Source: Squalus acanthias
Lineage: Eukaryota
Direction: 5' to 3'
Length of the DNA stretch: 64,000 bases
NCBI GenBank assembly: GCA_030390025.1
Contig: JASTWF010000033.1
Location: 6,326,001 to 6,390,000 of the forward strand
Part shown: positions 1 to 56,830 of the stretch, in pieces
How positions within the stretch are numbered: the stretch's first letter is position 1
Layout: each line of letters opens with the position of its first letter
The notes under the pieces: generated by a model
What the model saw: the letters and a program-made list of their open reading frames with translations, nothing else
Database searches by the model: none
What the model was told of the DNA's origin: nothing
Program-made: the position numbers and the translations under genes

Positions 1-8570
<8,570 letters not shown>

Positions 8571-40739: not shown

Positions 40740-42590
40740 CACCGCATGTTGTGACGTCATTCAGCTCATCCCAAAACCAAGCTTTCAACAAAAATTAACA
40801 GATCCTGAAACAAACGGTCATTCAACATCTGTGCACACTTGACTATTCCAAAGTTCTCCTGACCGATATTTCATCCTCCGCCCTCCATTAACATCATCCC
40901 AGCCAAAAGTCTACTGCCGGTGTCGGGAGCGGAGAGATCAGCAGCACAGTGAGTATTTAACTCACTTTCGCGGGATTGTTTTCAGAGGCTTACCAATCTC
41001 ATAGACCGGCGCCGGCGTTCCAGAGCCAGGTTACAATTCAAAAAGTGACGCAACAAGAGGAAGCAGCTGATTGGGTGAGTACGACCAGGTGAGTATTTAT
41101 ACAACTCTCTCGTTTGACAGTTAAGTTTAATAGTTTATCAAGTATAGAAGGCCCTAATTTCTGTGGTTGTAGTTTCTAAGGTCTTTGTTGTGTAGCAGGG
41201 TGTGCCAGTATACAATGGCCCTTCAGTATATCATTTAATTTTAGTGTAATTTGTGGTATTGATTTGAGTTAATTTAAATTAATTAAAGGATAAGTCATGG
41301 CAGCACAGTTCAGCCCCGTGGCATGCTCCTCCTGCACTATGTGGAAAATCGGGGACACTTCCTGTGTCCCTGTTGACCATTAGTGCGGGAAGTGTATTCG
41401 GCTGCAGCTACTGGCAGACCGCATTGCGGCGCTGGAGCTGTGAATGGATGCATACCGGAACATTCGCGATGCTGAAGATATCGTGGACAGCAAGTTTATG
41501 GAGTTGGTCACACCGCAGGTAAAGGCTGCCCAGGCAGGAAGGGAATGGGTGACCACCAGGCAGAGTAGTCGGCGCACGCAGGTAGTGCAGGGGTCCCCTG
41601 TGGACATCCCCCTCTGAAACAGTTATACCACTTTGGATATTGTTGAGGTAGATGGCTTATCCTGACACCATGGGTGTTTCTGCTGCACAGGACGGGAGGA
41701 AAAAGAGAGGGAGATCTATAGTGTAAGGGGATCCTATTGTAAGGGGAATAGATAGGCATTTCTGGGGCCGCAAAAGAGACTCCAGGATGGTATGTTACCT
41801 CCCTGGTGCAAGGGTCAAGGATGTCTCGGAGTGGCTGCAGGGCATTCTGGAGGGTGAGGGAGAACAGACACTTGTCGTGGTGCATATAGGTACCAACGAT
41901 ATCGGTAAAGAACGGGATGATGTCCTAAAAGCTGAATATAGGGAGTTAGGAGGTAAATTAAAAAATAGGACCTCAAAGGTAATAATCTCAGGATTGCTAC
42001 CGGTGTCACATGCTAGTCAGGGTAGAAATAGAAGGATATTTCAGATGAATACGTGGCGAGAGGAATGGTGCAAGGGGGAGGGATTCAAATTCCTGGGACA
42101 TTGGAACCGGTTCTTGGGGAGGTGGGACCTTACAAACCGAGCAGTCTACACCTGGGCAGGACCGGGACCGATGTCCTCGGGGGAGTGTTTGCGAGTGCTG
42201 TTAGGGAGGGTTTAAACTAAAATAGCAGGGGGTTGGGAACATGTGCAGGGAAACAGAGGAAAAGGAAGCAAGGATAGAAGCAAAAGACAGGAAGGAGTAA
42301 CGCAAAAGTGGAAGGTCAGCCATGATCTCATTAAATGGCGGAGCAGGCTCAACGGGCCGAATGGCCTACTCCCGCTCCTATCTTCTATGCTTCTATCCCG
42401 CACCAAGAGCCGCTCACACATCTCCTGAATGCACTAACCTACAATGACAGGCTGGCCTCTCAATGCCCCAAAATTCAAATTCACATCCTGGGATTTAAAT
42501 CTTTTCATGATATCCTCCCTCCCAATATCTTTTACCTTCACCAGCGCTACAATACCCCACCCACGCTCTCAGTTACTAGCTAGCTGAGGG
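40740..42590 (+). mobile_element. Very old L2-like RT fragment split by a CR1 derivative
   Basis: Decayed LDYS..LL-type motif before 40920; RTKSRSHI-type motif resumes at ~42397. Confidence 0.5.
40920..42395 (+). mobile_element. CR1 derivative: 5'UTR + ORF1 joined directly to the 3' tail (no ORF2)
   Basis: ATG at ~41297 with CSSC..CGKC zinc finger; esterase CYLPGARVKDV, HIGTNDIG; junction at ~42315 to CAGCCATGATCTCATT...GGCCTACTCC tail. Confidence 0.8.
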
Positions 42591-43789: not shown

Positions 43790-43933
43790 AAGACTTGCAT
43801 TTCTACAGCAGCTTTCCCCACCACTGGACATCTCAAAGCGGTTTACAGCCAATGAAGTACTTTTTGAAGTGGAGTCACTGTTGTAATGTAGGAAAAGCGG
43901 CAGCCAATTTTTGCACAGCAAGCTCCCACAAAC
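43790..43933 (-). mobile_element. DeuSINE (SacSINE1/AmnSINE1-like), 3' part; target of the LTR element
   Basis: CAAAGCG.TTTACAGCCAATGAAGTACTTTTTGAAGTG.AGTCACTGTTGTAATGTAGGAAA...GCAAGCTCCCACAAAC continues at 53256 as AAACAGCAATGTGA. Confidence 0.8.
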
Positions 43934-45584
43934 TGTAAGGGATACTCTCCTGACCCTGCGTGTCTCGTGGCCTGTGAGGTTCACGCGGCTCTGTGCAGCC
44001 TGTATGTCAGTGCGGGTCTAGGCCTGGTCTCCAGCCAGTCTGGGAACACTAGACACCCCTGTGAGTGGTTCGAATCACTCTCCCTTACGGTTCTAGACAC
44101 TGGACTTAGATGCGAGAGCAGTAATGGAGATAAAACTCATGTAGACTTGGTTTGAACGGTACGAAATGGAAAATCTTTATTGCATGATACTTAAAATTAT
44201 GAAATACATGTCATATGCACAGATTAATGACAGTACAATCTTACAAACAGTTATAATCACTCTTAGGGAAACGAGGAACGACCAGCACAACGTAAATAGG
44301 GCACACATTACAAATATCCTTAATCTTTAAACCCTCCCCTATCAATAACTATCCTAAAACTAGCTTCGTAGGATCCCGAGACTCATGCTCACCACTCGTA
44401 ATAACTCGGAGAAATCCCGAATAGCTGATCGGATGTTTTCCACCGCAGCACCCACGTGTTGGTCAGGAGATCTCCTGGTCCCACTTGTTTACTGCTTCTG
44501 CTGCTCGGTCAGTCGGCTGGACCGTCCGCTGTAGTGAAGACCTCTGTTGGTGGACTTTACAGTTTAGTCGAGGAGCACCGTTGTCAATATCACTGATACG
44601 ATGTGTTTGCACAGTCCAGTTATCGTCGATGCAATATGTCTTGTTAAAGAAGAAAACTTCCTGTCGAGAAGACTTGGCTGATCGACCTACAGGCGCGGTC
44701 GGGATTTACTGACCGTGGCGATGGATAAGGTCTTCTTCTCTTCTCCTCTCATCTCATCTCATCTCATCTCATCTCATCCCGGGCCTTCGGTTCCGCTGCC
44801 AGCTACCAACATAGGTCTTTGCAACAGTCTTTTACCCAGGAGCAGCCACGAGGTTACGAATCGACCGGATAAAACACAGGAGCAGCCACGATGATAACAG
44901 CAGCAAGTCAAGAACACGAGGCAAGAGCAAGAGCAAGAGGCCAGAGCAAGAATCAAGAGAGCGAATGGACGGTTTGGGCCTGCAATTATAGTGCACAGTT
45001 CTTCCGTTTCCCGCCCAACTACAATGTCCATTCTTTTGTTTAAGGTTTGGCGCCCAAAAATGTCCTGTATGGGTGATCTCTGTCCTTAATGGGTTTCGGG
45101 GCTACTCCTGAATGTTTGAGTACCTGTTAATATTTCTCCCATTGTTAAATCGGTCGGTATTCCCCCCTGGAGGGGTTTGGGGCTTCCAAGTGTCCTGTAT
45201 AACTACCTGCTAACGGCTCTCTCATCGTAGAGCCGTTGGGAGTTTACATATTAATGTCCTTTGGATGGGCCCTTGATGGCTTTCCTTTGTACCTGGGAGA
45301 CCGATCCCAGTATCGATGTTTATACTGTAAACCCATAATGTCCTGTGTATTGTCTTCACTGTGCTGAATCGTTATCGATCCTGCAAAAGAATGTTTATTG
45401 GAACGCCATCTTGTCTGCCTGCCGAAAAGTCTCGAATGTTCTGTCACGCGGTGCGGCGGCCATTTTACAGGCTGCTTGTGTCCAATTTAAACCTGACAGC
45501 ATTCCGCTGAAATAAAAGCTGTTTTGAACGAAACTTGTGTTTTCTCCTTATTAAAATGAAATCGCGATAATTGCGAATTCTACA
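43934..45584 (-). repeat. 3' LTR
   Basis: Direct repeat of 51605..53255; AATAAA at 44176-44181 (minus); TATAA at 44986-44990 (minus); internal (TCTCA)n tract at ~44747-44778. Confidence 0.97.
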
Positions 45585-45597
45585 GTCCCTCCTGTTG
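45585..45597 (-). promoter_or_regulatory. Polypurine tract
   Basis: Minus strand CAACAGGAGGGAC immediately precedes TGTA of the 3' LTR. Confidence 0.65.
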
Positions 45598-46008
45598 ATG
45601 CGAATAACTCCGCTTATCGTATCAAAAATCTCAGTGGTGAGCAATCTTATCTCGATTTCACTCCGAATCCAGTAAATTAATCCCATAAATTTTAACTTAA
45701 CTAGGGTCTCTGTGTCGTCCTTATTTCCCAAGAAAATCACATTTTATATCACCATAGGCATCATTTGCCCTTAAACTTACACCACTTGTCTTCCTTCCCG
45801 GCGTAACCAGGCCGATACCTCACGCATCACCTGTATATTTATCTTTTATTCAGGGAAAGGAAAAACAAAACCCAAAAAACCAAACAATCAACACCATCAC
45901 CAAAATAAACAAATCCCAACTCTTAAACATGTCGAGTTTCCAACGTATTTACACTGAGTACAAACTTCCGCGGCGCACGTGGCGAGCGGGAGTGACGCCA
46001 TTTTCCTA

Positions 46009-48360
46009 TTACACTGCGCTCTCATCGTGCACGCGCACGTAACGTTCTCGCCACTCTCCCGTGTTCTCATGCTTGGTGAGGCGCTTGTCTCTTTTACAAT
46101 GTATGAACAATAGGTATACTACAATAAACACTTGACAGACGACTAAAATGTGGGAGGCTATTCTGACCCATGAGGGCACTTCAATATTCGTGAACAGATT
46201 CCACCACGGTGGAACCACTATGTCCAAAATGTCTGTACCTATCTCGACAGTTTTCTGCTCTAAGGTATAAAAATGCTTTTGTGACACCGCGATGGCTTTT
46301 AGAAGTTTGGTTAAATGCTCGGGGAGAGGGGGAATGAGGTACCCAAAATGTGCGACAAATCGCTGCAAGTCGGTAAAATTCTCTTTTACTGTGAGATGAA
46401 CAGTGGATGGTTCAGGGATTGGGATAATTCGCTGTTGTGCTACTTGAACTTCAGCCCTGGGTTTAAAACAGAAACTGCTGTCACTCACCGGACACCGGCT
46501 ACGGTTTCCATGCTGGTAGTGTTGCGCTGCAGTGGTAACACAATATGTTCCACCCCCGATGTATGCTACCTGCGGAGGCACATGATCTTGTGCCATTGCC
46601 TCCATGGTGCAATTCATGGACTTGGCGCCAGCCGTTCTGAACCCGCACTGTGGTGTTAAAAAGGCATTCAAGTGCTGGGGGCACAGTATTATGTGTGCTC
46701 CCCTGCCACGACAACCAGAGAGATCTGTACCTGTCATCGTTTGCTCCCAGCGGATGACGTAAGGTGGAACCGCTGCATAACGAATGTGGGCTCCCCCCTG
46801 AATGACACCGATGTTCTCTACCCGATACACCGGGGCGGGCTTTGCTGTGTTGCCCAAAACCGGCATGCGTAATACTATTCCCATAATAGTATGGTTTGAA
46901 CGTCCGCAGTCCACGGGGACTGGGTAAGCTTCTGAAGCTAGCCTGAGCTGGCACGGACTTAATGCATTCTGAAAAGGGTGGAGCGCCCGCAGGTGTTTGT
47001 TACTTATCCAGGACGGGACCAAACCTTGTTTTAAATCCTCCAAATTACTGCGGCCCTCGCCCAGTAACCACGCCCCGTAAAGCACGCACACCTCGTTCTG
47101 CGCAGCTTGATCGGATGCATTCCGATCTTCCCTAATCAGGGCATTTACCGTACGCGCATGTTTCTCCAGCTCTGCTATAATCTCTTTTAAGTGTAGTGTC
47201 ATGGCTTGGTCCTCGTGCAGACCCGACCCTACCACTTTATTCTCATCTGTAAGAATATCCTTTAACTGTGTTTTTAAACCATTAATCTGGGTCTGCAGCT
47301 CCACACTGTCTAGAGCGTTGACCACAGATGTCCCTGTGTTAAAAGCAGTGAACGCATCGTTCACCAAACCCCTTCTTTGCCTCCCTACTTGGTCCAAAAC
47401 TTCCTGCGGTGCGGTGTACAAACTTGTCTTATCAATTTCTGCAAAATCAAACTCGTAAAATTGCCTGAACATCTTGGTCAACAGGATCTGGTACAACTGT
47501 TCCGTCTTTTTGGGGCACCACTCTGGTAACCGTACCTCAGTGAGATTTAAAATCACCGAGGCCACCGCGTAATGTACCCCCTGAAATAGTATCTGGTCTG
47601 TGGGGACCAGTACCAAACCGTTCCCGGGTCCCTTACTAGTTTTAGGGCACCCTTCTTCCTCAGTTACAACCACCGGAATCGTGGGCGGGGCTTTGCGTGG
47701 GCGCGTAATGAGCTCAGTGGCATTTACTGGGATCGGAGAGTATGGGGCTCCGCACCCCCGGGTGCTCGCATCCCACCTCATCCCCTGTCCGTTATCCTGC
47801 CACTGGTTAATAAAGAATATGGAGATGCCTTTGGGGCAAACGTACTTTGACCCCCACATACAAACATAAATCCCCTCATCTGGTTCCCACCATTTGTCCC
47901 AACAGACTTTCACTTGTCCATCTGTCCCCGTAATTGTCCGATGGGTATTATTACCCAGTCGCTCCCACTCAACCGAAGAGTTCCTCATAGTTTTGCTCAG
48001 CTTTCGCAGCCACCACCATCGGCTCAATGGGACATTCCCACTGCAGGTCAAACAAATCCGTTTGCCGACGGTGACGCTGATCCTGGGTGCGATGATCCGT
48101 ACTTTGGGGCACATTAAAGAAGTCTCTTTGTAGGCGAACCCCGATGTGCTGGAATACTCCGTTGAGTTCGTTCCCAGCCATCCTGGCCACCTTCCCTTGT
48201 GGAAATAGGTGCTGGTCCCTTCTGCCTTCCGTCTTCCGGTCCCATCCACCGCGATGGGGGCCGTGTCCCCGGAACATCCAAACACCACGACATCCTTGGT
48301 GTGGCCTCGATAGGCCAATCCACATCCGATTGCCACGAGCAAAACTAGAAGTCGTTCCAT
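46009..48360 (-). CDS. env: Envelope glycoprotein, 783 aa: signal peptide, Ig-like domain, furin site, F-protein-like class I fusogen, TM anchor
   Basis: MERLLVLLVAIGCGLA signal; CLTC...W...DEGIYVC; RQRR|GLVNDAFTAFNTGTSVVNAL at aa 327-350; heptads; Cys-rich region; TM IASHILVVCQVFIVVYLLFI; several N-x-S/T sites; Kozak AGGATGG. Confidence 0.9.
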   Translation of the reverse strand: MERLLVLLVAIGCGLAYRGHTKDVVVFGCSGDTAPIAVDGTGRRKAEGTSTYFHKGRWPGWLGTNSTEYSSTSGFAYKETSLMCPKVRIIAPRISVTVGKRICLTCSGNVPLSRWWWLRKLSKTMRNSSVEWERLGNNTHRTITGTDGQVKVCWDKWWEPDEGIYVCMWGSKYVCPKGISIFFINQWQDNGQGMRWDASTRGCGAPYSPIPVNATELITRPRKAPPTIPVVVTEEEGCPKTSKGPGNGLVLVPTDQILFQGVHYAVASVILNLTEVRLPEWCPKKTEQLYQILLTKMFRQFYEFDFAEIDKTSLYTAPQEVLDQVGRQRRGLVNDAFTAFNTGTSVVNALDSVELQTQINGLKTQLKDILTDENKVVGSGLHEDQAMTLHLKEIIAELEKHARTVNALIREDRNASDQAAQNEVCVLYGAWLLGEGRSNLEDLKQGLVPSWISNKHLRALHPFQNALSPCQLRLASEAYPVPVDCGRSNHTIMGIVLRMPVLGNTAKPAPVYRVENIGVIQGGAHIRYAAVPPYVIRWEQTMTGTDLSGCRGRGAHIILCPQHLNAFLTPQCGFRTAGAKSMNCTMEAMAQDHVPPQVAYIGGGTYCVTTAAQHYQHGNRSRCPVSDSSFCFKPRAEVQVAQQRIIPIPEPSTVHLTVKENFTDLQRFVAHFGYLIPPLPEHLTKLLKAIAVSQKHFYTLEQKTVEIGTDILDIVVPPWWNLFTNIEVPSWVRIASHILVVCQVFIVVYLLFIHCKRDKRLTKHENTGEWRERYVRVHDESAV

Positions 48361-48372
48361 CCTTCCTTGGTT

Positions 48373-48395
48373 CCTGTGATCAGATAGAATGAGGT
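48373..48395 (-). promoter_or_regulatory. Candidate env splice acceptor
   Basis: Minus strand CTCATTCTATCTGATCACAG|G lies 13 nt upstream of the env ATG. Confidence 0.6.
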
Positions 48396-48667
48396 AGCCA
48401 GCCTCGCAAAAAGTCTCTGGCTTTTGTGAAGGGTGAGCGGGTCCCCTGACCTCGCCTCACGTAAACTTCAACGTTCGCTAAATAGACTTCCTCTAAACCT
48501 AGCCTTAAAACTCCCATCATTTTATCGTTATCTGTTAAAAACACTACAAACTTAACCTTATTAAAACTACTTAAAACTTGAACTAAAACTTAAAACTTAA
48601 CCTTGCACTATAAACTTAAACTTAAAACTAATACTTTACAGTGCCGCCCGTTCTCAGGGCGGCCCCT

Positions 48668-49789
48668 TTAAATTCTGAGAAGGCTGCTGCGAGCTCTTCC
48701 CGACGGTGGGAGGGCACTGACCCTTCCCTCTGATCTGCCGCAGCCTGTTACTGCTTCGATGTGGCCTGTCTCTACCCGGGTTATCTTAACCTGAAACTTA
48801 CGCCCTGGGGCAGCCTGTGGACCTGACCACATCTTCCTGGGCTGGGGTACTCTGCTTGACCTACGGGGAATTGCTATGGGCGGGGGCTCCGTGACGGACG
48901 GACCGGGTCCCGAGACCTTCAACGGGATGACCTGGGGTTCCATCACAGGCGCCAGCCCCGCCTCCGCTGACTCCGCCTCCCTAACCTCGGGGCTGGCAGT
49001 TCGGGGCCCCGCCCTGCTCGGCGCAGCAGGCGGCCCTTCACTCGCGAACTCTGCCTCCCCTGAGGACTGGACGTTCAAAGCGGGCGGCCACACCTCTGGG
49101 AACCACATAGCGGCTGGCCCGGCCTCCTCTAGCTCCTTCCTCCTGCTGTCGGGACCTGCAGCTTGTGTGTCCACCCCATATGGATCTCTACCTAGCGGCC
49201 CCAATCCTTCCAGACCGTTCCTCTGAAACCACCCGTCATCATCACTATGCTCATCTGCACTATCCTCATCTGACCAGGGTACCCTGGGGTCCTCGTCATC
49301 TAACCCCCAACTCCGGAAAAACGCTGCATGATCGTCCGGGATGTCCCTTCCCCTGATGCAAGCTGCTACGCCTGCCGGTGTGCCTTGTGGTCCTACCTGG
49401 GGCTGTGTTTTCCCACTCGCAGGTCTGGCCCCTCCCTTAAGACAGGCCACCGCCCCTGCTTGTTTCTGTGAAATCTCACCTGCTGGAGGCTGCAGATTTC
49501 TATCCTGTTTTAAATACTCATACTCCCTGCTTTTGGCTACCCTGTAGGCTGCTTTTATCTCTCTAAGCTGCCCTTCTAGCCTGAGCACGTCTAACTTTCC
49601 CATTGATCGGGCGTTCTCCTCCCGCAGGGTCTGCTCTCTAAGCTGCCCTTCCAGCCTATCTATTCTCCCTATTAAGCGGGCGTTCTCCTCCCGCAAGGCC
49701 TGCTCTTTTAACCTGGCCTCCTCACCGCAGACCCCCTCCTGTGCGTGTCTTTTAAAAGGACACAGGTAGGCAGGCTGCGTGGGCTCTAG
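48668..49789 (-). CDS. ORF2 of unknown function, in frame with gag after a single UGA (candidate readthrough extension, 373 aa)
   Basis: CAA TGA CTA GAG CCC...; frame is open from 49789 to 48668; duplicated coiled-coil LREENAR..RLEGQLRE, acidic patch, Pro/Ala-rich tail; no pol motifs. Confidence 0.6.
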   Translation of the reverse strand, partial: LEPTQPAYLCPFKRHAQEGVCGEEARLKEQALREENARLIGRIDRLEGQLREQTLREENARSMGKLDVLRLEGQLREIKAAYRVAKSREYEYLKQDRNLQPPAGEISQKQAGAVACLKGGARPASGKTQPQVGPQGTPAGVAACIRGRDIPDDHAAFFRSWGLDDEDPRVPWSDEDSADEHSDDDGWFQRNGLEGLGPLGRDPYGVDTQAAGPDSRRKELEEAGPAAMWFPEVWPPALNVQSSGEAEFASEGPPAAPSRAGPRTASPEVREAESAEAGLAPVMEPQVIPLKVSGPGPSVTEPPPIAIPRRSSRVPQPRKMWSGPQAAPGRKFQVKITRVETGHIEAVTGCGRSEGRVSALPPSGRARSSLLRI

Positions 49790-51600
49790 TCATTGGGTAC
49801 TATTAGACGGTCCTGCGGCACCTACGGGGCCGGTTGCGACCGCCACCTGTCCACGCGCATTCAAAACCATCTTGCGCATGACTCCTAACACTGCTTCGAG
49901 GTCTTCGGGAGAGGTGGGTGCCTTTGCTTCCTTAGGCGGGACAGGCGCCTGGGTTCGGACCGCGGGATTTTTATCCTTGGAATCCTTCCAAGGGTTCCTG
50001 CAGTGCTTGCGCCAGTGCCCTGTCTTCCCACACCCGTAACAGGCATTACTTGCCTGTGGGGCGCGATTACCCTCCTGATGCCACTCTCTTTGAGCCGGGG
50101 CTGCGGGTCGTACCTCATGTACTCTTCCCTTAAAGGGACGTGTTGCCATACCCCTTATGTTACGGTAACCTAACGTGAGTCGATTCAAGACCGACTCTTC
50201 CGTAAGGTTGAGGTCATTGGGATCGAACCAGGCTTTTGCCTGCTCTCTAACGGCTGGTAAACTGTTGGCTATTATGCACCTAAGCCAATGAATTAAAGCG
50301 GCGCCTTCCACATCTTCGCGTTCGGGCGCACCTAGACAGCTGCGCTCATATACTGGCCACAGCCTGTCGGCAAAAACCTTCGGGGTTCTCCCTCCATCTG
50401 CACTGTCTGTCCCACTCTAGCAAACGGACCTCCGTCGTTCGCTCCCACTACTTCTAGGACCTCATTTTTCAATTCCTCATAACTTTTGTTTCCCCTCTTG
50501 CTCTCACCTGAGAGGCACTGAAGGACCGAGCTGTCTAATGAGAACAGCAGCATTTTTGCTGTCTCCCCATCATCGCAGCCGTTAATGGCTGCGGCTTGCT
50601 CAACTTCCCTGAAATGTACGGAAGGGTCGTCTATCTCGGTCAGCTTCCTTACGTGGTTTATCATGGCCCTCAGCTGATGTGAACTGTGAGGCAACACCAG
50701 CTGTCCGAGGAGATCCCCCGGTTCTTCCCCACCGTTTCTGCTTGGGCCCCTTTTAATCCCCGTTACTGGATACAACGATCCCTTTTCTACTTCCTTTTCA
50801 ACGGGCTTTTTTGTTTCTTCCGTTGCTTCCTCCCTAACCCAGGTTTCTGAATAGCTGGGTGGCGCGGAGGGCGCAGTGGCTACTACTTCTTCTGCTTTAC
50901 TTGGTGGGGAATTTCTAAATCTCTCATTTACTAGCGGCTGGCGTGCCGACGGATTAATAAGGCACACCATGCCGTTCGCATTATTCACGGCCTTTTTGAG
51001 GCTCTCTATCTCTTTTTCGCAGGCGCTATGGTCGGCTCCCTGAAACTTATCCTCAAGGGCCAACTTATACGCCGACCTAACCCCCATTAAGCTCTCTTCT
51101 TGAGTTCTTATCTGGGCAGCTTGACGGTTACATCTTTCCTTCATCCTACTCTCGTTTAATTTTGCTTCAGTGATCTGGCACTCGAGATACTCTACCCTTG
51201 TTTTAAGGTAGCTGGAGACTTCCTGGCTTTCCTGGCGTAACTCATTTAAACTCTTAATGAGCGCCTCCCCTCCAGAAACCTTCTCCTCCATTTCCTCCTC
51301 TAACTGCTTGATTCGAGCGGTTAGCGCTGTATTGGTCTGGTTTGAAATCTGAACCTGCCTTTTGTAGCACATAAGCCAGACTGCTTTCTCAACTGCCTTT
51401 TTATGCTCCTTACTATCCGTCCACCTTTCAGCTGCCTCTAGTGGGCTCTTATCCGCTAACAATTCGCTTATCCACCTTTTCGTTAGATTAACCTTCCCAA
51501 ATACGTAATCCGCTATCTTTTCCTGCATCACATTTCGTACAGTCATTCCAAAATCTAACACACTACCCTCTCGCTGCCAATGTCCTGTCGCGGTCGCCAT
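49790..51600 (-). CDS. gag: Gag (coiled coil, capsid with MHR-like motif, CCHC knuckle); one frameshift near 50385
   Basis: ORFs 50332..51600 and 49790..50311 join as QMEGE.PKVFADRL (MHR-like); CYGCGKTGHWRKHC at 50000-50041. Confidence 0.88.
51582..51599 (-). promoter_or_regulatory. Primer binding site, tRNA-Arg(UCG)-like
   Basis: TGGCGACCGCGACAGGAC, 5 nt after the 5' LTR; 17/18 complementary to the vertebrate tRNA-Arg(UCG) 3' end GUCCUGCCGCGGUCGCCA as I recall it. Confidence 0.85.
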
Positions 51601-51604
51601 TTTC

Positions 51605-53255
51605 TGTAAGGGATACTCTCCTGACCCTGCGTGTCTCGTGGCCTGTGAGGTTCACGCGGCTCTGTGCAGCCTGTATGTCAGTGCGGGTCTAGGCCTGGTC
51701 TCCAGCCAGTCTGGGAACACTAGACACCCCTGTGAGTGGTTCGAATCACTCTCCCTTACGGTTCTAGACACTGGACTTAGATGCGAGAGCAGTAATGGAG
51801 ATAAAACTCATGTAGACTTGGTTTGAACGGTACGAAATGGAAAATCTTTATTGCATGATACTTAAAATTATGAAATACATGTCATATGCACAGATTAATG
51901 ACAGTACAATCTTACAAACAGTTATAATCACTCTTAGGGAAACGAGGAACGACCAGCACAACGTAAATAGGGCACACATTACAAATATCCTTAATCTTTA
52001 AACCCTCCCCTATCAATAACTATCCTAAAACTAGCTTCGTAGGATCCCGAGACTCATGCTCACCACTCGTAATAACTCGGAGAAATCCCGAATAGCTGAT
52101 CGGATGTTTTCCACCGCAGCACCCACGTGTTGGTCAGGAGATCTCCTGGTCCCACTTGTTTACTGCTTCTGCTGCTCGGTCAGTCGGCTGGACCGTCCGC
52201 TGTAGTGAAGACCTCTGTTGGTGGACTTTACAGTTTAGTCGAGGAGCACCGTTGTCAATATCACTGATACGATGTGTTTGCACAGTCCAGTTATCGTCGA
52301 TGCAATATGTCTTGTTAAAGAAGAAAACTTCCTGTCGAGAAGACTTGGCTGATCGACCTACAGGCGCGGTCGGGATTTACTGACCGTGGCGATGGATAAG
52401 GTCTTCTTCTCTTCTCCTCTCATCTCATCTCATCTCATCTCATCTCATCCCGGGCCTTCGGTTCCGCTGCCAGCTACCAACATAGGTCTTTGCAACAGTC
52501 TTTTACCCAGGAGCAGCCACGAGGTTACGAATCGACCGGATAAAACACAGGAGCAGCCACGATGATAACAGCAGCAAGTCAAGAACACGAGGCAAGAGCA
52601 AGAGCAAGAGGCCAGAGCAAGAATCAAGAGAGCGAATGGACGGTTTGGGCCTGCAATTATAGTGCACAGTTCTTCCGTTTCCCGCCCAACTACAATGTCC
52701 ATTCTTTTGTTTAAGGTTTGGCGCCCAAAAATGTCCTGTATGGGTGATCTCTGTCCTTAATGGGTTTCGGGGCTACTCCTGAATGTTTGAGTACCTGTTA
52801 ATATTTCTCCCATTGTTAAATCGGTCGGTGTTCCCCCCTGGAGGGGTTTGGGGCTTCCAAGTGTCCTGTATAACTACCTGCTAACGGCTCTCTCATCGTA
52901 GAGCCGTTGGGAGTTTACATATTAATGTCCTTTGGATGGGCCCTTGATGGCTTTCCTTTGTACCTGGGAGACCGATCCCAGTATCGATGTTTATACTGTA
53001 AACCCATAATGTCCTGTGTATTGTCTTCACTGTGCTGAATCGTTATCGATCCTGCAAAAGAATGTTTATTGGAACGCCATCTTGTCTGCCTGCCGAAAAG
53101 TCTCGAATGTTCTGTCACGCGGTGCGGCGGCCATTTTACAGGCTGCTTGTGTCCAATTTAAACCTGACAGCATTCCGCTGAAATAAAAGCTGTTTTGAAC
53201 GAAACTTGTGTTTTCTCCTTATTAAAATGAAATCGCGATAATTGCGAATTCTACA
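51605..53255 (-). repeat. 5' LTR
   Basis: Direct repeat of 43934..45584; one substitution noticed (A45159 vs G52830). Confidence 0.97.
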
Positions 53256-53505
53256 AAACAGCAATGTGACAATGATCAGATCATCTGTTTTTCTTATGTT
53301 GTTTGAGCGATAAATATTGGCCCAGGACACCGGGGGTAAATCCCCTGGACGTCTTTTAAATAATACCATGGAATCTTTTACATCCCCCTGAGAGAGCAGA
53401 CTGCGCCGCGGTTTAACGTCTCATTCAAAAGACGGCACCTCCGACACTGCAGCGCTCCCACAGTACTTCACTGGAGTGTTTGCCTAGATGTGTGTGTTCA
53501 AGCCA
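53256..53505 (-). mobile_element. DeuSINE 5' part (continuation of 43790-43933)
   Basis: ATAAATATTGGC..CAGGACACCGGGG...CGGTTTAACGTCTCAT...AAAGACGGCACCTCCGACA.TGCAGC.CTCCC.CAGTACT.CACTGGAGTGT. Confidence 0.8.
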
Positions 53506-54299: not shown

Positions 54300-54642
54300 A
54301 TTCATCATTAAATAAAAATAAATTTAAAACAGAAATAGACAGTTTCCTAGAAGTAAAGGGCATTAAGGGTTACGGGGAGCGGGCAGGAATTTGGACATGA
54401 GTCTAGGTTCGGATCGGTCATGGCCCTGTGGGTAGTGGAGCGGGCCCAGGGACCGTGTAGCCTGATCCTGCTCCTATTTCGTGTGTGCAATTCTGTTAGA
54501 TGCAGGAGATGGTTCTGTGATAGATAGTAGATTGGCGGTTAGGATCAGATCAGCCATGATCTTATTGAATGGCGGAGCAGGCTCGAGGGGCCGATTGGCC
54601 TACTCCTGCTCCTATTTCTTATGTTCTTATGTTCTTATGTTC
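54300..54642 (+). mobile_element. CR1 3' end with duplicated tail module
   Basis: Same family as 15287-15394 + 17062-17290; ends (TTCTTATG)n. Confidence 0.85.
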
Positions 54643-54889: not shown

Positions 54890-56830
54890 CTTTGGGCTCA
54901 GTTGGTCGATTGAGGGGTACAAGGTATCAAGGAATGAGCTAAAAAAAGGAGCTTAGGAGAGCTAGGAGAGCTAGGAGGGGGCATGAGAAGTCCTTGGCGG
55001 GTGGGATCAAGAAAAACCCCAAGGCCTTTTACTCTTATGTGAGAAATAAAAGAATGACCAGGGTGAGGGTAGGGCCGGTCAAGGAGAGTAGTGGGAACTT
55101 GTGCATGGAGTCAGAAGAGATAGGAGAGGTGATGAATGAATACTTTTCGTCAGTGTTCACCGAGGAGAGGGGCCATGTTCTTGAGGATGAGAGTGTGATA
55201 AAGGTGGATAGGCTGGAGGTGGTAGATGTTCTGAGGGAAGATGCTTTTGCAATTTTGAAGAACTTGAGGGTCGATAGGTCCCCTGGCCAGATGGGATATA
55301 TCCTAGGATTCTTTGGGAGGCAAGGGAGGAGATTGCAGAGCCTCTGGCTTTGATCTTTGGGTCCTCACTGTCCACGGGAATGGTGCCAGTGGACTGGAGA
55401 GTGGCGAATGTTGTTCCTCTCTTCAAGAAAGGAAATAGGAATGACTCTGGTAATTATAGACCGGTTAGTCTTACTTCGGTGGTTGGTAAGATAATGGAAA
55501 AGGTCCTGAGGGATAGGATTTATGACCATTTGGAAAGGGGCAACTTAATCAGGGATAGTCAACACGGATTCGTGAAGGGTAAGTCTTGCCTAACAAATTT
55601 GATTGAATTCTTTGAGGAGGTAACTAAGTGTGTAGATGAAGGTAGAGCAGTTGATGTCGTATACATGGATTTTAGTAAGGCGTTTGATAAGGTTCCCCAT
55701 GGTCGGCCCATGAAGAAATTAAGGAGTTGTGGGATAGAGGGAAATTTGGCCGATTGGATAAGTAACTGGCTATCTCAGAGAAGGCAGAGGGTGGTGGTGG
55801 ATGCAGCATTTTCGGACTGGAGTCCAGTTACCAGCGGTGTGCCACAGGGGTCGGTGCTGGGTCCTCTGCTGTTTGTGATTTTTATCAATGAATTGGAGGA
55901 GGGGACTGAAGGGTGGATCAGTAAATTTGCTGATGAAACCAAGATTGGTGGAGCAGTGGATGAGGTGGAGGGCTGTTGTTGGCTGCAAAGAGACATTGAT
56001 AGGATGCAGAGCTGGGCCGAAAAATGGCAGATGGAATTTAACCCTGATAAGTGCGAGGTGATTCATTTTGGTAGGGCAAATTTGAATAAGGATTACAGGG
56101 TCAACGGCAGTGTTCTGAGGAACGTGGAGGAACAGAGTGATCTGGGGGTTCATATCCACAGATCTCTGAAGGTTGCCACTCAAGTGGATAGAGCAGTAAA
56201 GAAGGCCTATGGTGTGTTGGCGTTTATTAACAGAGGGTTTGAGTTTAAGAACCGTGAGGTTATGCTGCAACTGTACAGGACCTTGGTGAGTCCACATTTG
56301 GAATATTGTGTGCAGTTCTGGTCACCTCACTATAGGAAGGACGTGGAAGCATTGGAAAGAGTGCAAAGGAGATTTACCAGGATGCTGCCTTGTTTGGGGG
56401 GGGAGGTCTTATGAGGAAAGATTGAGGGAGTTGGGGCTTTTCTCTTTAGAGCGGAGGAGGATGAGAGGCGACTTAATAGAGGTTTATAAGATGCTGAGGG
56501 GGATAGATAGAGTGGATGTTCAGAGACTATTTCCTCGGGTAGAGGCAGTTGTTACAAGGGGGCATAACTATAAGGTGCATGGGGGGAGATATAGAAGGGA
56601 TGTCCGAGGTAGATTCTTTACTCAGAGAGTGGTTGGGGTGCGGAATGGACTGCCTGCTGTGATAGTGGAGTCGGACACTTTAGGAACTTTCAAGCGGTTA
56701 TTGGATAAGCACATGGAGCACACCAGAGTGATAGGGAGTGTGATAGCTTGATCTTGGTCTCGGACAATGCTCGGCACAACATCGAGGGCCGAAGGGCCGG
56801 TACTGTGCTGTACTGTTCTATGTTCTATGT
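54890..56830 (+). mobile_element. 5'-truncated, relatively young CR1 with 354-aa RT ORF
   Basis: ORF 55350..56414 with complete RT motifs; tail (TGTTCTA)n at ~56810. Confidence 0.93.

Follow-up and report, generated by a model that had tools for sequence, protein, structure and literature searches.

The window analysed here is a 64,000-nucleotide stretch of the Squalus acanthias genome (assembly GCA_030390025.1, contig JASTWF010000033.1, positions 6,326,001 to 6,390,000 of the forward strand). It contains an endogenous retrovirus (ERV) on the minus strand whose envelope gene (env) encodes an intact Env protein. In the predicted structure of Env, a class I fusogen core that resembles paramyxovirus and pneumovirus fusion (F) proteins is preceded by a domain that is likely immunoglobulin (Ig)-like, and the two are joined by a Pro-rich tether. 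The env open reading frame (ORF) and its parts, with the amino acid (aa) numbering of Env, are as follows.

46009..48360, minus strand: env ORF, intact, 783 aa plus stop (ORF call; intact in all 57 scored genome copies).
48313..48360, minus strand: signal peptide, about aa 1-16 (hydrophobic N-terminus read from the sequence; helix 2-11 in the model).
48109..48312, minus strand: conserved N-terminal segment, aa 17-84 (Cys29, Cys84, an RWPGWLG-NST motif, and the N65 glycosylation sequon; invariant columns in alignment A3).
47806..48108, minus strand: putative Ig-like (I-set-like) domain, aa 85-185 (signature, profiles, and models).
47746..47805, minus strand: post-Ig segment, aa 186-205 (conserved Trp187 and Cys203).
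47650..47745, minus strand: Pro-rich linker, aa 206-237 (Pro at 8 of 32 positions and a sequon at N213; disorder predicted, with a predicted local distance difference test score, pLDDT, of 22-30).
47371..47649, minus strand: F2-like part, aa 238-330 (from the family-wide CP-x-GP-x-GL motif to RQRR; pLDDT 84-90).
47371-47382, minus strand: furin-type site RQRR, aa 327-330 (predicted cleavage site at the end of the F2-like part).
46012..47370, minus strand: F1-like fusion subunit, aa 331-783 (N-terminal peptide, heptad repeat A (HRA), beta-rich domains, heptad repeat B (HRB), membrane helix, and short tail).
46093-46167, minus strand: membrane helix, about aa 730-756 (hydrophobicity peaks at aa 732-756).

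Two AlphaFold models were built, the first covering aa 1-260 (10 sequences) and the second the full-length Env (53 sequences). In the full-length model, the core reached a pLDDT of 77-94, and its F1-like part featured a long helix at aa 355-444 (HRA), beta-rich domains at aa 477-645, and a further helix at aa 681-711 (HRB). A Foldseek search with this model retrieved F of human parainfluenza virus 3 (hPIV3; 1ztm) at E 3.1e-10 among 224 matches with E<=0.001; the rows shown were without exception paramyxo- or pneumovirus F proteins. The furin-type site, HRA, HRB, and membrane anchor of a class I 'Ib' fusogen were all recognisable in the predicted protein; as modelled, the core (aa 238-711) is a paramyxo-/pneumovirus-F-like class I fusogen fold. 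Sequence searches gave zero F matches, since none of the 13 family members matched Pfam PF00523 at E<=10 and the family profile A4 retrieved no F chains from the PDB sequences, so the link between Env and F comes from the predicted fold alone.

The likeness to paramyxo- and pneumovirus F (hPIV3 F, respiratory syncytial virus F, Nipah F) extends over the predicted fold of aa 238-711, the furin-type site, HRA, the beta-rich domains, HRB, and the C-terminal anchor, whereas Env differs from them in the missing PF00523 and F-chain sequence matches and in the peptide following RQRR, which is weakly hydrophobic. F proteins have a short F2 and usually act with a separate attachment protein. In contrast, about 220 additional residues, which include the Ig-like domain, precede the F2-like part of this Env.

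When the full-length model was compared with BFVD, the matches included mononegaviral glycoproteins and baculovirus F, and the best-ranked paramyxovirus F0 was found at E 8.6e-10. The Envs of two epsilonretroviruses, walleye epidermal hyperplasia virus 1 and walleye dermal sarcoma virus, gave E values of 2.0e-11 and 4.6e-9, comparable to that F0, while gp130 of feline foamy virus was a weak match (E 4.3e-4). The likeness to the epsilonretrovirus Envs is one between structure models, and those proteins have 1159-1317 aa compared with 783 aa here. An abalone herpesvirus protein and ORF72 of Ranid herpesvirus 2 likewise matched the Env model.

Regarding the N-terminal part, an initial annotation of this DNA had read the B-, C-, and F-strand signature of an Ig domain ahead of the fusogen. 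Its landmarks (Cys106, a Trp cluster about 10 residues on, and DEGIYVC with Cys167) all lie where it had placed them, and window positions 47806-48108, which encode aa 85-185, agree with the interval it had given. The stretch ISVTVGKRICLTC corresponds to aa 94-106 and ends in Cys106, Trp115-117 follow 9-11 residues on, and DEGIYVC occupies aa 161-167. In the Ig superfamily (IgSF), two Cys on strands B and F are 55-75 residues apart, a strand-C Trp comes about 10-15 residues after the first Cys, and strand F carries D-x-G-x-Y-x-C. Here, the distance from Cys106 to Cys167 is 61 residues, the two cysteines are invariant in five of five sequences of alignment A3, and both the Trp and the strand-F motif are present.

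The signature was tested as the pattern C-x(8-16)-W-x(30-70)-[DE]-x-[GA]-x-Y-x-C. In the entire 64-kb window, translated stop-free in six frames, this pattern occurred at the head only, and shuffling produced it in 19 of 20000 sequences for aa 17-237 and in 32 of 20000 for the whole protein. It was retained in all six close homologues (P0001, P0002, P0006, P0051, P0010, and P0004) and in 0 of 7 distant relatives. The predicted B strand also contains a C-x-x-C motif (Cys103-Leu-Thr-Cys106, window 48043-48054) that is present in 6/6 close homologues and, in the Mustelus and Pristiophorus clade, takes the form C-F-T-C or C-V-Q-C.

Both AlphaFold models arranged strands B, C, C', D, E, and F in Ig order. 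The predicted strands of aa 85-185 were 87-96, 102-107 (B, with Cys103 and Cys106), 116-121 (C, next to Trp115-117), 132-134, 141-146, 149-154 (E, with Cys153), and 161-171 (F, with Cys167), and the first, N-terminal model had strands at 165-169 and 177-184 (G). In the full-length model, pLDDT was 58-78 on strands B to F and reached 69-78 on B, E, and F, and the modelled Ig-like domain as a whole had values of 45-78; structure prediction, one of the checks proposed in the initial annotation, gave an Ig strand order in both models at low to moderate confidence. Residues 17-84 had a pLDDT mostly below 62 in both models.

The Pfam scan that had likewise been proposed gave Ig_3 as the sole domain-type match over aa 88-167 in P0001 (E 0.43, 11.6 bits), P0051 (E 0.0027, 18.6 bits), and P0010 (E 0.0085, 17.0 bits), each below the curated cut-off of 30 bits. 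When the five-sequence A3 profile was searched against the PDB sequences, the top four matches were all Ig domains, namely the CRTAM V domain (E 0.015 and 0.031), followed by VEGFR1 and DIP-eta, and the CRTAM alignment laid aa 91-181 onto the entire V domain with both Cys in register. Domain 2 of JAM-A (1f97) matched the head at E 1. Foldseek with the N-terminal model gave 50 shown rows, nearly all of them V domains of antibodies or CD8 (E 4.9e-3 to 1.3e-2), and the V-domain rows had target-normalised template modelling scores of 0.45-0.59. A VIA-align comparison with 48161 representative chains yielded almost exclusively IgSF members (titin I-set, NCAM2, embigin, basigin, LAG3, and the V domain of IgNAR) at a root-mean-square deviation of 2.6-3.4 over 85-98 residues and Z scores of 6.7-7.7, throughout below 8 and thus in a range that, according to the tool, may reflect merely a common arrangement. 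Among the ESM Atlas features, in which scores below 0.9 are leads only, aa 17-237 of P0001 scored at most 0.80 and aa 66-188 of P0019 scored 0.84-0.86, and the named clusters were Ig families alone.

We consider it likely that aa 85-185 adopt an Ig-like fold; the position of this domain N-terminal to an F-like class I fusogen, as originally proposed, is supported by the profiles, the models, and Foldseek, with the Ig tests at sub-threshold scores. Because of the strand count, the 61-residue Cys spacing, and the matches to titin, NCAM, and basigin, the modelled structure suggests an Ig-like domain of I-set type. In or near the head, additional cysteines are conserved (Cys29, 84, 103, 153, 175, and 203), and this sequence pattern suggests further disulfides. 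Glycosylation sequons lie at N127, N137, and N213, within aa 85-185 and its flank, and N65 lies further N-terminal. The linker described earlier between the Ig-like domain and the F-like part was recovered as the Pro-rich aa 206-237, disordered in the model.

An exhaustive HMMER search of 1.84 billion representatives retrieved 49 proteins at E<=0.001, all of them Env relatives or chimeric gene models, with zero host Ig proteins among them. The close relatives come from the skate Rhinoraja and the sharks Pristiophorus and Scyliorhinus, and the heads of these skate and shark homologues are 46-72% identical, a conservation similar to that of the F2-like part. The initial annotation had proposed a captured host Ig domain; with no host Ig protein among the hits and the head shared between skate and shark, that proposal is not supported. 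Chiloscyllium, Mustelus, and the frogs Pelodytes, Mantella, and Xenopus contribute more distant full-length relatives, whose alignment begins at the core motif and which have N-termini of their own of 150-190 residues. In the family alignment, P0013 (Chiloscyllium) and the frog proteins P0019 and P0047 carry EG-x-x-h-x-h-x-C and G-x-x-x-C in the head columns; P0035 has EG aligned, but Cys at neither position, and all four have a mid-domain Trp, though the columns differ. P0013 bears the UniRef name 'Ig-like domain-containing protein', and six of its nine weak matches in the PDB were VH domains. P0035 had a sub-threshold V-set match (E 0.045, 14.4 bits against a cut-off of 26) and retrieved no Ig chains from the PDB.

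Over the core, P0037 shares 38% identity with P0035 (E 1e-136), but just a 21-residue signal peptide precedes that core. The head is thus widespread yet dispensable in this Env family; its presence in related env genes, another point raised at the outset, is complete among the six close homologues but does not extend to P0037. A word-indexed search with the A4 profile found further shark and skate fragments only and did not connect the family to fish lokiretrovirus Env. Since diverged viral lineages share the head, any capture would be old. From these comparisons we infer that the head entered the Env lineage long ago and was not copied recently from a host gene; its donor cannot be named.

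Some further features were observed among the relatives. In the frog Envs P0019 (aa 1-66) and P0047 (aa 1-30), an R-x-K-R-S site lies before the Ig-like part, and P0019 also has a hydrophobic segment ahead of it; this pre-Ig segment is reminiscent of the cleaved leader peptide of foamy viruses. Several public shark gene models (P0003, P0004, P0011, P0016, P0017, and P0039) fuse env pieces to host genes (zinc-finger, Niban-like, F-box). These fusions are annotation artefacts and can contaminate profiles, as in one alignment whose PDB search gave zinc fingers only.

The env gene belongs to a provirus with the following features.

43934..53255, minus strand: whole provirus, comprising a long terminal repeat (LTR), broken gag, a pol-deleted middle, intact env, and a second LTR (defined by the LTRs, the TG...CA ends, and flanking AAAC).
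43930-43933 and 53256-53259: 4-bp target-site duplication AAAC, directly flanking the provirus.
51605..53255, minus strand: 5' LTR (blastn of LTR against LTR).
43934..45584, minus strand: 3' LTR (blastn of LTR against LTR).
49790..51651, minus strand: gag, in two overlapping frames in the window copy (50332-51651 and 49790-50416, the second with a CCHC zinc knuckle).
48668..49789, minus strand: remnant ORF, whose C-terminal part is the Pol C-terminal tail of the full-length sister copy (blastn against L013-L019, matching ORF ends).

The two LTRs aligned over 1652 nt with 1 mismatch (99.94% identity, blastn) and have TG...CA ends. In the 3.7-Gb genome, 57 env copies were scored among 12915 first-look candidates, and all 57 encode proteins 99-100% identical, with zero stops. 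Given an LTR pair with one mismatch in 1652 nt and at least 57 intact env copies, this endogenous retrovirus is very young and was active until very recently. In the sister copies, gag is a single 620-aa frame, and the full-length layout consists of gag, one stop, and a pol frame of at least 1207 aa, whose product contains protease, reverse transcriptase (RT), an RNase H-like tether, RNase H, and integrase domains. In the Pol of the full-length sister L017, both RT_RNaseH_2 (1.5e-21) and RNase_H (1.5e-19) were found. About 3.7 kb of pol is absent from the window copy, with 343 nt of unrelated sequence in its place, and Pfam found zero pol domains in the remnant ORF. The possibility that this ORF is a gag duplicate or an accessory gene was rejected, since it shows no gag similarity and its end is identical to the Pol tail of the full-length copy. 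The pol-deleted window copy has near-identical LTRs and an intact env, and full-length relatives may have supplied the functions for its mobilisation in trans.

The env DNA of eleven sister copies was 98.2-99.1% identical to that of the window copy. The differences fell at 109 sites, 101 synonymous and 8 nonsynonymous, with synonymous to nonsynonymous counts of 9 to 1 in aa 85-185 and 19 to 4 in aa 1-237; because the eleven copies had been picked as best protein matches, these counts are biased toward few amino-acid changes. Env, including its Ig part, was under strong purifying selection during the spread of the element, as far as this biased count goes, because a DNA divergence of 1-2% with almost no amino-acid change is hard to obtain otherwise. 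Such selection is the outcome predicted by spread through reinfection.

The element had initially been discussed in terms of lokiretroviruses, and that label is unproven. Lokiretroviruses (Wang and Han 2021, PMC7947760), whose RT branches as sister to that of all other retroviruses, also have an Env of the F type; in a comparison by eye with the supplement text of that paper, its core start (P-G-P-x-S-G-I-x-L ... P-G-L-L) resembles the CP-x-GP-x-GL motif found here, and an R-x-K/R-R site about 95-110 residues past the core start is a further likeness. According to the same supplement text, 22 of 23 published lokiretrovirus env genes lead from the signal peptide to the P-G-P-x-S-G-I-type core within about 30 codons and have no N-terminal domain, and the 23rd is apparently a partial gene (PMC7947760); the suggestion that described lokiretrovirus Envs lack the head holds for these 22. 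The term 'Immunoglobulin' has 0 occurrences in PMC7947760 and its supplement. In the accessible parts of that source, lokiretrovirus Env matches PF00523 (E 2.2e-7), and one Chondrichthyes row of the supplement gives 0 of 3 genomes (PMC7947760). The present Env has neither PF00523 similarity nor a core right after the signal peptide, and epsilonretrovirus models match it about as well as the best-ranked paramyxovirus F0. In the PDB, the sister-copy Pol found matches of similar strength in Ty3 (5e-71), gammaretroviral RT (4e-70), and foamy protease-RT (1e-63), and the dual RNase H (tether plus RNase H) that it shares with lokiretroviruses is common to all retroviruses and hence non-discriminating. 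Read-through from gag over a stop into pol is an epsilon- and gammaretroviral trait. Sharks and frogs host epsilon-like ERVs, according to the accessible text of PMC4422223. From the models, the F-like fold among fish retroviruses may be wider than the lokiretrovirus label implies.

The order of parts in this Env, a beta-sandwich head, a Pro-rich hinge, a subunit-proximal part, a furin site, and a fusion subunit, is like that described for the gamma-type surface subunit (SU) in the accessible part of PMC9967133. Gamma-type SU also has a C-x-x-C, as Cys103-Cys106 here, which in this case is the sole such motif, lies inside the predicted Ig B strand, and recalls the isomerase-like motif. In contrast to gamma-type Env, the fusion subunit here is F-like, with no C-x6-C-C and no adjacent Cys pair in aa 331-783, and neither Pfam nor HMMER of the 1.84 billion representatives found sequence similarity to gamma-type Env. 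Foamy-virus Env (gp130), one of the 'modular class Ib fusion proteins' in the accessible text of Fernandez et al. 2024 (PMC11468914), likewise combines an F-like scaffold with its own receptor-binding module. The foamy receptor-binding domain (RBD) is non-Ig and inserted within the N-terminal subunit, whereas the module here lies N-terminal to the entire F-like core. A foamy-virus identity of the element was rejected, given the CCHC knuckle of gag and a pol that follows gag via a single stop; neither this knuckle nor the gag-stop-pol layout is foamy-like. The host IgSF adhesion domains of CRTAM (V domain, 4h5s and 3rbg) and JAM-A (1f97) gave the best sequence-level matches of the head, over the whole domain and with both Cys aligned, but at E 0.015 to 1 only, with low identity, and the head has extra cysteines.

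On balance, we lean towards the reading that Env is an F-like class I fusogen carrying an I-set-type Ig head on a flexible Pro-rich tether, and that this head probably binds a receptor. From the architecture and the selection, and by analogy with other fusogens, the head would most likely be a built-in receptor-binding module. Held membrane-distal on the Pro-rich tether, it would bind a host receptor; a single Env protein would then both attach and fuse, as in gamma-type SU, foamy-virus Env, and coronavirus spike, and receptor binding would release the F-like core, already cleaved at RQRR, to refold. An RBD followed by a proline-rich region is described for gamma-type SU in the available text of PMC9967133, and the 'modular class Ib' scheme, in the available text of PMC11468914, covers foamy-virus Env and coronavirus spike. 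Precedents thus exist both for a binding module built into an F-like scaffold and for a beta-sandwich head with a Pro-rich hinge in retroviral SU. Full-text literature searches, which did not extend to subscription journals or closed bioRxiv supplements, turned up no account of an F-type retroviral Env with an Ig-like head.

Several observations speak against an Ig-like, receptor-binding head. No Ig test attained a conventional threshold, including the Pfam bit scores, the VIA Z scores, and Foldseek with the N-terminal model, which gave 0 matches at E<=0.001. The first model had a mean pLDDT of 36.6, the G strand was not confidently built in the full-length model, and the PDB is rich in antibodies, so that sandwiches in general tend to match antibodies. 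The homology of the heads across clades rests on the alignment pattern: hhalign among the N-termini of five clades was non-significant (best E 0.018), and the frog N-terminal profile retrieved zero Ig chains from the PDB. The headless P0037 and the published lokiretrovirus Envs indicate that the F-like core needs no head. Added to the sampling bias of the eleven sister copies, the head is as conserved as the core, with no excess of amino-acid change, while many receptor-binding domains evolve faster.

Three alternatives were considered. The head may have another small Cys-rich beta structure that mimics the Cys/Trp spacing, the models having drifted to the commonest sandwich. Sub-threshold scores throughout, low-confidence models, and conserved Cys103, 153, 175, and 203 outside the canonical Ig set would fit such a fold, but Pfam, the PDB profile, the two models, the two structure searches, and the language-model features returned Ig families only, and the signature is conserved and rare in shuffles, and we regard a non-Ig fold as very unlikely. 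A head that is Ig-like may still have no binding role and instead cap or shield the F-like trimer, as a prefusion clamp or a glycan cover against antibodies, with attachment residing elsewhere on Env or in another factor. Conservation of the head at the level of the core without diversifying change, the sequons N127, N137, and N213 together with N65, and the existence of headless relatives are all compatible with a shield. However, the full-length sister copy contains no further envelope gene between pol and the 3' LTR, and known receptor-binding modules, in the accessible parts of PMC9967133 and PMC11468914, are likewise built as a distal domain on a flexible Pro-rich tether; a shielding head is accordingly judged unlikely.

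The remaining alternative, that the head is a captured fragment of a host Ig gene acting as a ligand mimic or an immune decoy, draws on the canonical IgSF signature and on the fact that the best sequence matches (JAM-A domain 2, CRTAM V) are host adhesion or immune molecules. It is set against the lack of any host protein at E<=0.001 in the 1.84-billion-protein search, the occurrence of the head in diverged lineages of skates, sharks, and apparently frogs, which makes any capture older, and the placement of the Ig-like domain in one ORF with the fusogen, with no secreted or separate form. We find this alternative highly doubtful.

For the favoured reading of an Ig head that binds a receptor, the context is that F-type fusogens are usually seen as bare machines needing an attachment partner, while foamy-virus Env and coronavirus spike carry their own module; an Ig-like head before an F-like core would be a third solution after these two. 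It offers a testable candidate for how a poorly known retroviral lineage finds its host cell, and a data point on the gain and loss of receptor-binding modules by viral fusogens. Joining these strands, the F-like Envs of lower vertebrates might form a family with exchangeable N-terminal heads, in which an old shark, skate, and frog branch took a host adhesion-type IgSF domain (nectin-, CRTAM-, or JAM-like) and enters by mimicking an adhesion partner; the recent spread would then reflect reinfection, so that such a retrovirus may still circulate in cartilaginous fishes. We consider this combined scenario quite unlikely.

At least half of the 31-letter words sampled from env occur in 12 runs attributed to six differently coded organisms (among the 14 rows listed, none is on record as RNA); either the element is common to close relatives of the host or it has crossed between species. 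Elsewhere in the window, an ORF at 55278-56414 on the plus strand, 2 kb from the provirus and on the opposite strand to it, encodes an RVT_1 domain (E 2.8e-35) and is part of another retroelement. Outside the LTRs, the provirus is flanked by an 84-nt direct repeat at 42313-42396 and 54547-54630 (85% identity), which probably represents copies of a short interspersed repeat. At window positions 7-8567 lies a satellite array with an 18-bp unit in 474.6 copies, 82% matches, 65% G+C, and a strong strand skew.

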